A stretch of 64,000 nt of DNA, from the NCBI RefSeq assembly GCF_016026235.1, contig NZ_CP065613.1. One strand, 5' to 3'. This stretch comes from Escherichia coli. Lineage in GTDB: Bacteria; Pseudomonadota; Gammaproteobacteria; Enterobacterales; Enterobacteriaceae. Positions 16,307 through 63,243 of this stretch are shown here, piece by piece (position 1 is the first letter of the stretch; each line of letters begins with the position of its first letter). The notes beneath the pieces were generated by a model. It saw only the letters and a program-made list of their open reading frames with translations. It did not search any database and was not told where the DNA came from. The position numbers and the translations under genes are program-made.

Positions 16307-16882
16307 TCAACGCCTGATAAGCGGTTGAACTTTGTTATCAATAGCTTCCCTCGCTCGGAAGATACGTGAACGCACCGTACCTACCGGACAATCCATGATA
16401 GCGGCTATCTCTTCATAGCTCAGGCCATCCAGCTCCCGCAAGGTTATTGCCATGCGTAAATCTTCCGGGAGGGACTCAATAGTTCGGAAAACTATCTGTC
16501 TCAGTTCTTCTGACAACATTAAGTTCTCAGGGTTCGAAATTTCTTTCAACGCGCCGCCACTTTCGAAGTTCTCAGCTTCAATGGCATCCACATCACTGGA
16601 AGGTGGACGACGCCCCTGAGCAACCAGGTAATTTTTCGCTGTATTTACAGCAATCCGATACAGCCATGTATAAAAAGCGCTATCTCCCCGGAACGAATCC
16701 AGCGCACGATAGGCTTTAATAAAAGCTTCTTGTACCACATCGGGAACATCACCCGACGGCACATAGCGGGAAACCAGACTCGCCACTTTATGCTGATAGC
16801 GCACTACCAGTAAGTTAAAGGCTTTCTGATCTCCCTTCTGGACCCGTTCAACCAGGACCTGGTCCGTTAACTGCTCGCTCAT
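16307..16882 (-). CDS. rpoE: RNA polymerase sigma-E factor
   Basis: Track ORF 16307..16915; start set at MSEQLTDQVLVERVQKGDQKAF (191 aa); ECF sigma regions 2 and 4. Confidence 0.95.
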   Translation of the reverse strand: MSEQLTDQVLVERVQKGDQKAFNLLVVRYQHKVASLVSRYVPSGDVPDVVQEAFIKAYRALDSFRGDSAFYTWLYRIAVNTAKNYLVAQGRRPPSSDVDAIEAENFESGGALKEISNPENLMLSEELRQIVFRTIESLPEDLRMAITLRELDGLSYEEIAAIMDCPVGTVRSRIFRAREAIDNKVQPLIRR

Positions 16883-16964
16883 CCGAGGTAAAGTCTCCCC
16901 AAACCAAATTTCCACGCGCTATCGAAACGCCACTCCATTAGCTGCAATTTGAGCAAGCAAAGGG

Positions 16965-16992
16965 TTAGAGTGTCTCGTTTTTGTAAAGTTCC
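16965..16992 (-). promoter_or_regulatory. Sigma-E-dependent promoter of rpoE (autoregulated)
   Basis: Minus-strand GGAACTT - 16 nt - TCTAA, a strong match to the sigma-E consensus, ~80 nt upstream of the rpoE ATG. Confidence 0.7.
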
Positions 16993-17265
16993 GTAACGCA
17001 TCTGTTTTTGTTTGTCATGCTGTAGACGGATCATTATCTATCATTATAAGTCTACAGAATCTGAACATCGCATTATCTGTGTAGAAATGCCCATTTAACT
17101 GCCTGAAGAGTAACCCAACGGCCTTTTTATTTCACCACCTAATCCTCCGCCAGCCAGTAACTTCTCTTTTTCTCGCCGCCCTGCGTCAGCGTGTTTAGCC
17201 ACTGTAACAAATATTAAAATAGCAGGTGTTTATTCGCACAACATGATGCTATGCTGACCAAACCG

Positions 17266-17283
17266 TGTTTAGTAAATTAAACA
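17266..17283. promoter_or_regulatory. Putative NadR operator at nadB
   Basis: TGTTTA-GTAAAT-TAAACA 18-bp palindrome a few nt upstream of the nadB start codon; a second TGTTTA half-site at ~17227. Confidence 0.5.
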
Positions 17284-17289
17284 AAGAAA

Positions 17290-18912
17290 ATGAATACTCT
17301 CCCTGAACATTCATGTGACGTGTTGATTATCGGTAGCGGCGCAGCCGGGCTTTCACTGGCGCTACGCCTGGCTGACCAGCATCAGGTCATCGTTCTAAGT
17401 AAAGGCCCGGTAACGGAAGGTTCAACATTTTATGCCCAGGGCGGTATTGCCGCCGTGTTTGATGAAACTGACAGCATTGATTCGCATGTGGAAGACACAT
17501 TGATTGCCGAGGCTGGTATTTGCGATCGCCATGCAGTTGAATTTGTCGCCAGCAATGCACGATCCTGTGTGCAATGGTTAATCGACCAGGGGGTGTTATT
17601 TGATACCCACATTCAACCGAATGGTGAAGAAAGCTACCATCTGACCCGTGAAGGTGGCCATAGTCACCGTCGTATTCTTCATGCCGCCGACGCAACTGGT
17701 AGAGAAGTAGAAACCACGCTGGTGAGCAAGGCGCTGAACCATCCGAATATTCGCGTGCTGGAGCGCAGCAACGCGGTTGATCTGATTATTTCTGACAAAA
17801 TTGGCTTGCCGGGCACGCGACGGGTTGTTGGCGCGTGGGTATGGAACCGAAATAAAGAAACGGTGGAAACCTGCCACGCAAAAGCGGTGGTGCTGGCAAC
17901 CGGCGGTGCGTCGAAGGTTTATCAGTACACCACCAATCCGGATATTTCTTCTGGCGATGGCATTGCTATGGCGTGGCGCGCAGGCTGCCGGGTTGCCAAT
18001 CTCGAATTTAATCAGTTCCACCCTACCGCGCTGTATCACCCACAGGCACGCAATTTCCTGTTAACGGAAGCACTGCGCGGCGAAGGCGCTTATCTCAAGC
18101 GCTCGGATGGCACGCGTTTTATGCCCGATTTTGATGTGCGCGGCGAACTGGCCCCGCGCGATATTGTCGCCCGCGCCATTGACCATGAAATGAAACGCCT
18201 CGGCGCGGATTGTATGTTCCTTGATATCAGCCATAAGCCCGCCGATTTTATTCGCCAGCATTTCCCGATGATTTATGAAAAATTGCTCGGGCTGGGGATT
18301 GATCTCACACAAGAACCGGTACCGATTGTGCCTGCTGCACATTATACCTGCGGTGGTGTAATGGTTGATGATCATGGGCGTACGGACGTCGAGGGCTTGT
18401 ATGCCATTGGCGAGGTGAGTTATACCGGCTTACACGGCGCTAACCGCATGGCCTCGAATTCATTGCTGGAGTGTCTGGTCTATGGCTGGTCGGCGGCAGA
18501 AGATATCACCAGACGTATGCCTTATGCCCACGGCGTCAGTACGTTACCGCCGTGGGATGAAAGCCGCGTTGAGAACCCTGACGAACGGGTAGTAATTCAG
18601 CATAACTGGCACGAGCTACGGCTGTTTATGTGGGATTACGTCGGCATTGTGCGCACAACAAAACGTCTTGAGCGCGCCCTGCGGCGTATCAATATGTTGC
18701 AACAGGAAATAGACGAATATTACGCCCACTTCCGCGTGTCGAATAATTTGCTGGAGCTGCGTAATCTGGTACAGGTTGCCGAGTTGATTGTTCGCTGTGC
18801 GATGATGCGCAAGGAGAGTCGGGGGTTGCATTTCACGCTGGATTATCCAGAACTGCTCACCCATTCCGGTCCATCGATCCTTTCCCTCGGCAATCATTAC
18901 ATAAACAGATAA
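17290..18912 (+). CDS. nadB: L-aspartate oxidase
   Basis: 540-aa ORF; FAD-binding GSGAAG motif; matches NadB. Confidence 0.96.
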
Positions 18913-21153: not shown

Positions 21154-21250
21154 CCTGATGCGCTACGCTTATCAGGCCTACGTGGCTCATGCAATATATT
21201 GAATTTGCACGATCTTGTAGGCCGGATAAGGCGTTCACGCCGCATCCGGC
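21154..21250. repeat. REP/BIME element (two inverted REP units)
   Basis: GCCTGATGCGCTACGCTTATCAGGCCTAC and GTAGGCCGGATAAGGCGTTCACGCCGCATCCGGC, canonical enterobacterial REP sequences in opposite orientation, between convergent srmB and yfiE. Confidence 0.85.
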
Positions 21251-32939: not shown

Positions 32940-33059
32940 ATGCCTGGCAGTTCCCTACTCTCGCATGGGGAGACCCCACACTATCATCGGCGCTACGGCG
33001 TTTCACTTCTGAGTTCGGCATGGGGTCAGGTGGGACCACCGCGCTAAGGCCGCCAGGCA
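32940..33059 (-). rRNA. rrfG: 5S ribosomal RNA
   Basis: 120-nt reverse-strand match to E. coli 5S rRNA (TGCCTGGCGGC...CAGGCAT). Confidence 0.95.
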
Positions 33060-33151
33060 AATTCTGTTTTATCAGACCGCTTCTGCGTTCTGATTTAATC
33101 TGTATCAGGCTGAAAATCTTCTCTCATCCGCCAAAACATCTTCGGCGTTGT

Positions 33152-36053
<2,902 letters not shown>

Positions 36054-36246
36054 TCACAACCCGAAGATGTTTCTTGCGATTCATCATCGTGTTGCGAAAA
36101 TTTGAGAGACTCACGAACAACTCTCGTTGTTCAGTGTTTCAATTTTCAGCTTGATCCAGATTTTTAAAGAGCAAATATCTCAAACATCACCCGAAGATGA
36201 GTTTTGAGATATCAAGGCAGGTGACTTTCACTCACAAACCAGCAAG

Positions 36247-36322
36247 TGGCGTCCCCTAGGGGATTCGAACCCCTGTTACCGCCGTGAAAGGGCGGTGTCC
36301 TGGGCCTCTAGACGAAGGGGAC
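36247..36322 (-). tRNA. gltW: tRNA-Glu in the 16S-23S spacer
   Basis: 76-nt reverse-strand match to tRNA-Glu(UUC) GTCCCCTTCGTCTAGAGGCCCAGGACACCGCCCTTTCACGGCGGTAACAGGGGTTCGAATCCCCTAGGGGACGCCA. Confidence 0.95.
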
Positions 36323-36407
36323 GTATCAGTCTGCTTCGCAAGACGCCTTGCTTTTCACTTTCTATCAGACAATCTGTGTGAGCACTGCAAAGTACGCTTC
36401 TTTAAGG

Positions 36408-37949
<1,542 letters not shown>

Positions 37950-38392: not shown

Positions 38393-40966
38393 TTACTGGA
38401 CGGCGACAATCCGGTCTTCATTAACTTCCAGGCGAATCACTTTACCCGGAACCAATTCACCAGACAGTATTTGCTGTGCCAGCGGGTTTTCGATCTGCTG
38501 CTGAATTGCACGTTTCAGAGGACGTGCACCATAGACCGGATCGTAACCGTTCTCGCTCAGCAGTTTCAGCGCCTCGTCAGAAATGTGGATTTCATAACCA
38601 CGTTCTTCCAGACGTTTATACAGACGTTTCAACTGAATCTGCGCAATCGACGCAATGTGCTGTTCACCCAGCGGATGGAAGACCACCACTTCATCGATAC
38701 GGTTAATGAATTCCGGACGGAAGTTATGGCTAACCACACCGAGCACCAGCTCTTTCATGTGCGCATAATCCAGTTCACCGAAGCGTTCCTGAATCAGATC
38801 GGAACCGAGGTTAGAGGTCATAATGACAACCGTATTACGGAAGTCGACCGTTCTCCCCTGCCCGTCAGTCAGACGCCCATCATCCAGTACCTGCAACAGA
38901 ATATTGAAGACATCCGGATGCGCTTTTTCCACTTCATCCAACAGGATGACGGAATACGGACGACGACGCACAGCTTCGGTCAGGTAGCCACCTTCTTCAT
39001 AACCGACATATCCCGGAGGCGCACCAACCAGACGAGACACCGAGTGTTTCTCCATAAACTCGGACATATCGATACGGACCATCGCCTCGTCGCTATCAAA
39101 CATAAAGTTCGCCAGCGCCTTACAAAGCTCTGTTTTCCCCACACCAGTTGGGCCGAGGAACAGGAATGAACCAATCGGGCGATTTGGATCCGCCAGCCCC
39201 GCACGGCTACGACGAATAGCGTTAGATACCGCATCAACCGCTTCGTTCTGACCAATAACGCGATGGTGCAGTTCTTGCTCCATACGCAGCAGTTTTTCGC
39301 GCTCGCTTTCCATCATGCGAGAAACCGGAATCCCCGTCCAACGCGCCAGCACTTCAGCAATTTCGGCGTCGGTCACTTTATTACGCAACAGACGCATAGT
39401 TTTGCCTTCGAGCTGCGTTGCGGCTTCCAGTTGCTTTTCCAGTTCCGGGATTTTGCCGTATTGCAGTTCAGACATCCGCGCCAGGTCCCCCACACGGCGA
39501 GCCTGTTCAATAGCGATTTTCGCCTGTTCCAGTTCCGCTTTAATGGTCTGCGTACCAGAAAGCGATGCCTTCTCTGCTTTCCACTCTTCTTCTAACTTGG
39601 AGTACTGACGTTCTTTGTCGCTCAGTTCTTCGTTGAGCATATCCAGACGTTTTTTACTGGCTTCATCAGACTCTTTCATTAACGCCTGTTGTTCCAGTTT
39701 GAGCTGGATGATACGGCGATCGAGTCGGTCGAGTTCTTCTGGTTTTGAGTCAATCTGCATACGAATGCTGGATGCTGCTTCATCGATCAGGTCGATGGCT
39801 TTATCCGGCAGCTGACGGTCAGCAATGTAGCGATGAGACAACGTCGCCGCTGCAACAATTGCCGGGTCAGTAATTTGCACATGGTGGTGCAATTCGTAAC
39901 GTTCTTTCAGGCCACGTAGAATCGCAATGGTATCTTCAACAGAAGGCTCGGCAACAAACACTTTCTGGAAACGACGTTCCAGCGCAGCATCTTTTTCGAT
40001 GTACTGGCGATATTCGTCAAGCGTCGTGGCACCTACGCAGTGCAATTCACCACGCGCCAGCGCCGGTTTCAGCATGTTTCCGGCGTCCATTGCGCCATCG
40101 GCTTTACCCGCGCCGACCATGGTATGTAATTCGTCGATAAACAGGATGACGTTGCCTTCCTGTTTGGCAAGATCGTTAAGCACGCCTTTTAAACGTTCTT
40201 CAAACTCACCGCGATATTTCGCCCCAGCCACCAGCGCGCCCATATCCAGCGCCAGTACGCGGCGGCCTTTCAACCCTTCCGGCACTTCGCCGTTGATAAT
40301 ACGCTGCGCCAGACCTTCAACGATGGCAGTTTTACCGACGCCGGGTTCACCAATCAGTACCGGGTTATTTTTAGTACGACGTTGCAGCACCTGAATGGTA
40401 CGGCGAATTTCTTCATCACGACCAATCACCGGATCGAGTTTGCCTTGTTCGGCTCGTTCGGTAAGATCGATGGTATATTTTTTCAAAGCCTGACGTTGGT
40501 CTTCAGCACCTTGATCGTTCACGCTTTCACCTCCACGCATTTGTTCAATCGCTTGAGTAATGTTGGCGGTGGTCGCCCCTGCTGCTTTCAGGATGTCGGC
40601 CAGCGTGCCGCGAGACTCAAGTGCCGCCAGAACGAACAGTTCTGACGAGATAAAGTTATCACCACGTTTTTGCGCCAGCTTGTCGCAAAGATTAAGAACG
40701 CGCACCAGATCCTGTGATGGCTGGACATCACCACCAGTACCTTCAACCTGCGGTAAACGATTTAATGCCTGATTGATATCTGTGCGCAACTGGCCAGCAT
40801 TTATGCCAGCGGATGTTAATAAAGGACTAACCGAACCCCCTTCCTGATTCAGCAGGGCGCTCATTAAATGAAGTGGTTCGATGAATTGGTTGTCGTGCCC
40901 GAGTGCAAGTGATTGGGCATCGGCAAGAGCAAGCTGGAATTTATTAGTAAGACGATCCAGACGCAT
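38393..40966 (-). CDS. clpB: Chaperone/disaggregase ClpB (Hsp100)
   Basis: Track ORF 38393..40978; start set at [18 protein letters not shown] (857 aa); two AAA+ modules with Walker A GEPGVGKT and GPTGVGKT. Confidence 0.97.
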
Positions 40967-41004
40967 AACTCCTCCCATAACGGATCAAAGTTGCTACTGG
41001 AGAT

Positions 41005-41034
41005 TAAATGAGGTCATCCCTCAATTATTCAAGG
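41005..41034 (-). promoter_or_regulatory. Sigma-32 heat-shock promoter of clpB
   Basis: Minus-strand CCTTGAA - 14 nt - CCTCATTTA, matching the sigma-32 consensus (CTTGAA ... CCCCATNT), ~45 nt upstream of the clpB ATG. Confidence 0.65.
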
Positions 41035-41095
41035 TTATTGACCAGATTAATGTGAAAAGAAAATCACGCGTACCGGATCGTCTTGATTCTTTAGG

Positions 41096-44340: not shown

Positions 44341-44396
44341 GTTGACAGCGTGAAAACAGTACGGGTACTGTACTAAAGTCACTTAAGGAAACAAAC

Positions 44397-44444
44397 ATGA
44401 AACACATACCGTTTTTCTTCGCATTCTTTTTTACCTTCCCCTGA
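44397..44444 (+). CDS. pheL: pheA leader peptide (15 aa, Phe-rich)
   Basis: ATG...TGA encoding [15 protein letters not shown], 7 of 15 residues Phe; TTGACA -35 hexamer at ~44342. Confidence 0.9.
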
Positions 44445-44490
44445 ATGGGAGGCGTTTCGTCGTGTGAAACAGAATGCGAAGACGAACAAT

Positions 44491-44522
44491 AAGGCCTCCC
44501 AAATCGGGGGGCCTTTTTTATT
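44491..44522 (+). terminator. pheA attenuator terminator
   Basis: AAGGCCTCCC-AAAT-CGGGGGGCCTTTTTTATT between pheL and pheA. Confidence 0.85.
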
Positions 44523-62665: not shown

Positions 62666-62880
62666 ACCTGTACTCCAATTATTGACCAGTTCCTCACCGC
62701 GCCTCCCTCTCCGGCGGCGCGAATGAACATCTTATTGGTTATCACATCCGACACAAATGTTGCCATTCCATTGCTTAATCGAATAAAAATCAGGCTACAT
62801 GGGTGCTAAATCTTTAACGATAACGCCATTGAGGCTGGTCATGGCGCTCATAAATCTGGTATACTTACCTTTACACATTG

Positions 62881-63243
62881 GGGCTGATTCTGGATTCGAC
62901 GGGATTTGCGAAACCCAAGGTGCATGCCGAGGGGCGGTTGGCCTCGTAAAAAGCCGCAAAAAATAGTCGCAAACGACGAAAACTACGCTTTAGCAGCTTA
63001 ATAACCTGCTTAGAGCCCTCTCTCCCTAGCCTCCGCTCTTAGGACGGGGATCAAGAGAGGTCAAACCCAAAAGAGATCGCGTGGAAGCCCTGCCTGGGGT
63101 TGAAGCGTTAAAACTTAATCAGGCTAGTTTGTTAGTGGCGTGTCCGTCCGCAGCTGGCAAGCGAATGTAAAGACTGACTAAGCATGTAGTACCGAGGACG
63201 TAGGAATTTCGGACGCGGGTTCAACTCCCGCCAGCTCCACCAA
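62881..63243 (+). ncRNA. ssrA: Transfer-messenger RNA (tmRNA, 10Sa)
   Basis: 363-nt match GGGGCTGATTCTGGATTCGACGGG...GGTTCAACTCCCGCCAGCTCCACCA; internal tag ORF GCA AAC GAC GAA AAC TAC GCT TTA GCA GCT TAA (ANDENYALAA) at ~62970..63002. Confidence 0.95.

Follow-up and report, generated by a model that had tools for sequence, protein, structure and literature searches.

Position and conservation of the NadR operator at Escherichia coli nadB, and a candidate auxiliary box 74 bp upstream

The NadR operator has an 18-bp consensus, TGTTTA-N6-TAAACA, which is bound by a NadR dimer with NAD as the co-repressor, and such sites belong to promoters that drive genes of NAD synthesis and salvage (PMC2330245, PMC2330246). 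The element is the NAD box of the enterobacterial NAD regulon, comprising nadB, nadA-pnuC, and pncB (Penfound and Foster 1999; Gerasimova and Gelfand 2005; both as cited in PMC2330245). The literature lists nadB among the NadR targets (PMC12421817, PMC7221760). In Salmonella, both EMSA and ChIP-qPCR show NadR on the nadB promoter, deletion of nadR raises nadB mRNA 8-10-fold, and ATP and c-di-GMP release the protein from DNA (PMC12421817). The nadB site of E. coli described below is that known site, and nothing about it differs in kind: it has the identical 18-bp consensus, precedes a listed member of the regulon, is conserved in Enterobacteriaceae, and lies at or just downstream of the transcription start.

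The window analysed, a stretch of 64,000 nucleotides from E. coli contig NZ_CP065613.1 (assembly GCF_016026235.1), contains the rseB-rseA-rpoE-rseD / nadB locus. The neighbouring minus-strand ORFs are rseB, rseA, and rpoE. The plus strand carries a 540-aa ORF (17290 to 18912), which is nadB, encoding L-aspartate oxidase, by the ORF list and by the RefSeq annotation of 100%-identical DNA. Pfam FAD_binding_2 and Succ_DH_flav_C were both recognised in its product, whose nearest database relatives carry the name L-aspartate oxidase. By Megablast, the 501-bp region is present in 5425 of 5426 complete E. coli genomes, where RefSeq annotates rpoE, rseD, and nadB. The last-named minus-strand gene, rseD (the rpoE leader peptide of RefSeq), is a 51-aa ORF at 16879 to 17034 that lies 5' of the rpoE start and overlaps it. 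Alignment with MG1655 showed that adding 2693130 to a window coordinate gives the coordinate in NC_000913.3; the two sequences differ by four substitutions over 421 aligned bases, none of them within the main box. The features of the nadB side of the spacer are as follows, with positions relative to the nadB transcription start where these are given.

17192 to 17209, unstranded: distal degenerate NadR-like box, TGTTTAGCCACTGTAACA, with 2 mismatches, centred at -61.5 of nadB and 74 bp upstream of the main box
17215 to 17222, unstranded: A-tract, recognised by its conservation; a candidate UP-like element for nadB (-47 to -40), the rpoEP3 -10, or both
17227 to 17232, plus strand: TGTTTA hexamer at -35 to -30 of the nadB promoter, found only in Escherichia
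17247 to 17255, plus strand: extended -10 of the nadB promoter, TGcTATGCT, with a mean majority frequency of 0.90 over 80 species
17262, plus strand: nadB transcription start (an A) from SMRT-Cappable-seq, accurate to ~1 nt
17262 to 17289, plus strand: nadB leader, 28 nt and A/U-rich, 18 of the 28 nt being operator
17266 to 17283, unstranded: probable primary NadR operator (NAD box), TGTTTA-GTAAAT-TAAACA, centred at +13.5 and spanning +5 to +22 of the nadB transcript

The palindrome TGTTTAGTAAATTAAACA occupies 17266 to 17283 and is followed by AAGAAA (17284 to 17289) and then by the ATG at 17290 to 17292; a sequence-only reading of this DNA had placed a NadR operator close to the nadB start codon, and the box indeed ends 6 nt from it. 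By direct comparison, the main box equals the published 18-bp consensus exactly (consensus from PMC2330245, PMC2330246). The exact motif TGTTTA-N6-TAAACA occurs once in the 64 kb against an expectation of 0.00, and none of 100 dinucleotide shuffles contained any copy; when up to two mismatches were allowed there were eight matches against 2.25 expected, a count reached in 0 of 100 shuffles.

Conservation was judged on 80 nadB loci from about 80 species of Enterobacteriaceae, collected by a genome scan with NadB and having 83-97% protein identity to it; the upstream regions of Salmonella, Yersinia, Serratia, Proteus, and Vibrio lie outside this sample. A homologue search with NadB yielded E. 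coli clusters only, and matching the exact RpoE sequence gave nothing beyond E. coli-like loci. Both half-sites are identical in all 80 loci of the alignment, and wherever upstream DNA was present the box is 20-26 nt 5' of the nadB ATG. The sequence-only assignment of the site to NadR is therefore upheld by an exact consensus in front of a known regulon gene with half-sites that do not vary in 80 species. The six-base spacer is almost as constant, being GTAAAT in 75 of the 80 loci, GTACAT in four, and GCGCAT in one, and the flanks are much less conserved, with mean majority frequencies of 0.59-0.65 adjoining the box and 0.41 further upstream.

The operon table obtained by SMRT-Cappable-seq gives b2574 a single start, at 2710391 on the forward strand (PMC6131387). 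Forward coordinates in that table were taken as 0-based: the bases listed for thrL (147) and nadA (782002) are both C, and in each case the next base is A. The thrL start lies at 148. The nadB start is therefore 2710392, or 17262 in the window, a position given by one high-throughput dataset together with promoter conservation. The extended -10, whose hexamer occupies 17250 to 17255, ends 7 nt upstream of the mapped start, and the promoter geometry predicts a start at the conserved A17262. A sigma-70 promoter and terminator scanner found nothing in 16800 to 17400; the nadB promoter was missed by this simple scanner because its -35 region is poor and the promoter relies on the extended -10. In Escherichia the -35 region is TGTTTA; other genera have TGCGAT or TGCAGT there. 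The A-tract could be an UP-like element for nadB, the rpoEP3 -10 (TATTTT after TGc, on the minus strand), or both.

With the start at 17262, the operator begins 4 nt downstream of it and lies wholly within the 28-nt leader; the sequence-only reading would have been refuted by a start far upstream together with no NadR protection of the box, and the mapping gave no such start. Of the other E. coli NadR boxes, that of nadA (TGTTTAGCATATAAAACA) spans -8 to +10 and that of pncB (TGTTTATTGTACTAAACG) spans +12 to +29, each with one mismatch, as judged from the SMRT-Cappable-seq table and the MG1655 sequence. NadR operators thus generally sit at +1 or shortly after it, and nadB is typical in this; the half-sites and the overlap with the initially transcribed region are common to nadB, nadA-pnuC, and pncB. 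The nadB box differs from the other two in being the only perfect one, in having a second, degenerate box upstream, and in lying 24 nt from the ATG as against 90 and 47, so that it, unlike the other two, also occupies the ribosome-binding region. As the spacers of the three boxes differ, GTAAAT is not demanded by NadR; yet it is strictly conserved at nadB, so these bases may be under some further constraint.

Other repressors also act from just downstream of +1, as LacI does at O1, centred at +11. The nadB operator resembles O1 in being centred at about +13.5, inside the polymerase footprint, and in the possible presence of an auxiliary operator upstream in helical phase. The proteins are unlike: NadR is an HTH_3 domain fused to NMN adenylyltransferase and ribosylnicotinamide kinase, and looping or tetramer formation by NadR is putative. 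The nadR gene itself lies outside the window and is present in 5424 of 5426 complete E. coli genomes; in MG1655 NadR, HTH_3 covers residues 7-59.

We conclude that 17266 to 17283 is very probably the known primary NadR operator of E. coli nadB, acting from +5 to +22 to block initiation or escape. It shows the attributes by which such an operator is recognised, namely an exact inverted repeat, a place in the regulatory region of an NAD gene, an HTH-containing NadR in the species, a conserved position, and overlap with the initially transcribed region. Its sequence, statistical significance, conservation, and promoter geometry were computed here, the start comes from a published dataset, and binding and repression come from the literature on Salmonella and E. 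coli. The nadB promoter is of the sigma-70 type, with an extended -10, and transcription starts at A17262. In the scheme that we favour, when NAD is sufficient, NAD-bound NadR, a protein with an N-terminal HTH domain, would sit on the operator DNA and repress nadB; the operator shares DNA with the downstream end of the RNA polymerase footprint, and open-complex formation or promoter escape would be blocked. Which of these two steps NadR acts on is something that we infer only. When NAD falls, ATP (or c-di-GMP) would occupy NadR, the repressor would leave, and nadB would be transcribed. Occlusion of the initiation region, as had been suggested from the sequence, is reasonable given that an initiating RNA polymerase would cover the box.

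Repression of nadB by NadR via this box is established, so finding the box matters little in itself. Site and function being already known, the refinements offered here are modest and partly speculative: the position relative to the transcription start, the frozen spacer, the distal box, a leader devoid of a Shine-Dalgarno sequence, and the overlap with rpoE promoters. We did not find the +5 to +22 position relative to a capped end, the invariant spacer, or the distal box 74 bp upstream stated in the NadR-operator literature accessible to us. The useful corrections are that the operator is transcribed, that the half-site at 17227 is a lineage-specific feature at -35, and that the conserved element, a candidate auxiliary site, lies further upstream.

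The second TGTTTA that had been reported about 40 bp upstream does exist, at 17227 to 17232 and 39 bp before the box, but it falls at the -35 position, and genera other than Escherichia do not share it. In the alignment only a GTG, at 17226 to 17228, is conserved there across genera, the other sequences reading TGCGAT, TGCAGT, and similar, and no right half-site partner was found for the hexamer. A third TGTTTA, at 17192, had been overlooked. Of 14 plus-strand TGTTTA hexamers in the window, three fall within these 75 bp (17192, 17227, and 17266); the heptamer TGTTTAG is rarer, with four occurrences in 64 kb, two of them here and 74 bp apart. It is the distal box at 17192 to 17209, and not the hexamer at 17227, that is the conserved candidate for an auxiliary element, and it is conserved across genera: all 80 species share GTTTAG, and 70 of the 80 have the first T as well, with a weak right half in which only xxAAC[A] is recognisable. 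The spacing between the distal and main boxes is 73-74 bp in 75 of the 80 species, and 74 bp is about seven helical turns. On the strength of these sequence features, the distal box is a putative auxiliary NadR operator.

Both boxes also overlap starts reported for the divergent rpoE gene. A review gives six rpoE starts relative to the rpoE start codon: -381 (P1), -327 (P2 and P3), -218, -153, and -75 (PMC8103513). With the rpoE ATG at 16882, the -153 and -218 starts reproduce the SMRT-Cappable-seq reverse starts 2710165 and 2710230, and -75 is within 1 nt of 2710088; since the two sources agree, the mapping onto the window is sound. The two most relevant positions are these.

17209, minus strand: reported start shared by rpoEP2 (sigma-54) and rpoEP3 (sigma-70), at -327 (PMC8103513), of which the distal box covers +1 to +18
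17263, minus strand: reported rpoEP1 start, at -381 (PMC8103513), of which the main box covers -3 to -20

The rpoEP1 start is thus back to back with that of nadB and its -10 region is inside the main box, and the rpoEP2/P3 start is the right edge of the distal box. As the boxes overlap rpoE promoter starts, control of the distal rpoE promoters by NadR is conceivable.

Some further details of these minus-strand promoters were recorded. In MG1655, the minus strand has a sigma-54-like GG-N10-GC at -26/-25 and -14/-13 of the reported rpoEP2 start. The window has T at 17234 where K-12 MG1655 has C, which turns the minus-strand GG of this motif into GA; of 5411 E. coli genomes, about 2771 contain the exact 63-mer of the window at that position and about 1031 that of K-12, such that the K-12 sigma-54 element may be a minority allele. 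The minus strand of 17215 to 17225 reads CTGCTATTTTA. This is an extended -10 (TGcTATTTT), placed 7 nt before the start reported for rpoEP3, and it mirrors the TGcTATGCT of nadB; the A-tract may serve both promoters. A CRP-like reading, judged from the sequence alone, was dropped: the G and A of TGTGA, which are critical, are both T in TGTTT, and the centre would fall off-phase, at -65.5 of rpoEP3.

The overlap allows an extended scheme in which NadR on the distal and main boxes cooperates, possibly looping out the nadB promoter, and might also damp the distal rpoE promoters; we regard this as possible but not probable. It is favoured by a two-mismatch match lying in the same 400-bp spacer as the perfect box, where ~0.014 would be expected, by the invariance of GTTTAG and the near-constant spacing, by the rarity of TGTTTAG in the window, by rpoE start positions that could be checked against SMRT-Cappable-seq, and by the tetrameric NadR proposed for Haemophilus influenzae (as cited in PMC7221760). 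Against it, the distal box has a poor right half, in which AAC(A) alone is conserved, the nadA and pncB promoters have single boxes, and the evidence on tetramers is heterogeneous, the NadR of Lactococcus lactis being a monomer. In addition, none of the rpoEP1 to rpoEP3 starts was detected in the SMRT-Cappable-seq dataset, we found no paper linking NadR and rpoE, and an RpoN gSELEX paper is silent on the rpoE-nadB spacer. Conservation of the distal element could also serve the rpoE promoters instead. Occupancy of the distal site by NadR is accordingly put forward only tentatively, and any effect on rpoE is less likely again.

The anti-Shine-Dalgarno duplex of the 22 nt preceding the nadB ATG is worth only -0.9 kcal/mol (80-species median, +0.7), compared with -7.1 for srmB and -8.5 for rpoE. 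The nadB mRNA is without a Shine-Dalgarno sequence but is not leaderless, and the main operator occupies the place in the leader where a ribosome-binding site would be. These observations can be assembled into a compact shared switch, with NadR on two phased boxes that bracket the nadB promoter, NAD status feeding into rpoE, and the main box acting also as a ribosome-loading region devoid of a Shine-Dalgarno sequence. We consider this assembly improbable, although the frozen spacer (75 of 80) would be accounted for, because the main box would then double as the nadB ribosome-loading region. If the side observations hold, they would connect sigma-E expression with NAD homeostasis in a way that can be tested, and a single 18-bp element would be under joint selection as an operator, the core of a divergent promoter, and a ribosome-binding region.

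Very unlikely is an arrangement in which the operator overlaps the core promoter and start, the nadB mRNA is leaderless or has an untranslated region of a few bases, and NadR occludes the start. The very short or absent 5' untranslated region that had been deduced from the sequence belongs to this arrangement, and the nearness of the box to the ATG, the TAAATT inside the spacer that resembles a -10 hexamer, and the missing Shine-Dalgarno sequence, a property of leaderless mRNAs, all agree with it. However, the leader is 28 nt long by the capped-5'-end data, in keeping with the conserved extended -10, and that deduction does not survive; in 77 of 78 species a gap of 10-11 nt separates the end of the -10 from the box downstream of it, and a -10 inside the box would have no acceptable -35 at the proper spacing. 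The distance from box to ATG also varies, from 2 to 8 nt (2 nt in 12 species of the 80-species alignment), whereas that from box to -10 is fixed.

It is likewise hardly credible that the palindrome works chiefly at the RNA level, as a leader hairpin controlling translation or mRNA stability with the NadR consensus secondary: although the entire palindrome is transcribed, the minimum-free-energy structure includes its 6-bp hairpin, and the would-be loop is unusually conserved, the hairpin is worth only -2.0 to -2.8 kcal/mol, the leader folds no better than shuffled sequences (z = -0.78, 42 of 200 shuffles folding as well), the stem never varies and so offers no covariation support, and the same DNA motif with other spacers is present at nadA and pncB, at -90 and -47 relative to the ATG. 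The idea of an RNA switch in the nadB leader was rejected on the same folding result.

At Rfam gathering thresholds, no RNA family was found in the nadB leader. Elsewhere in the window, matches at these thresholds were ohsC (7389 to 7465), rncO (10878 to 11092), AsrC, antisense to rseC (13876 to 14707), ES036/CssrF (21174 to 21216), a complete rRNA operon with one tRNA and StyR-44 (32942 to 37949), RyfD (40947 to 41085), the Phe leader (44396 to 44521), and tmRNA (62880 to 63242).
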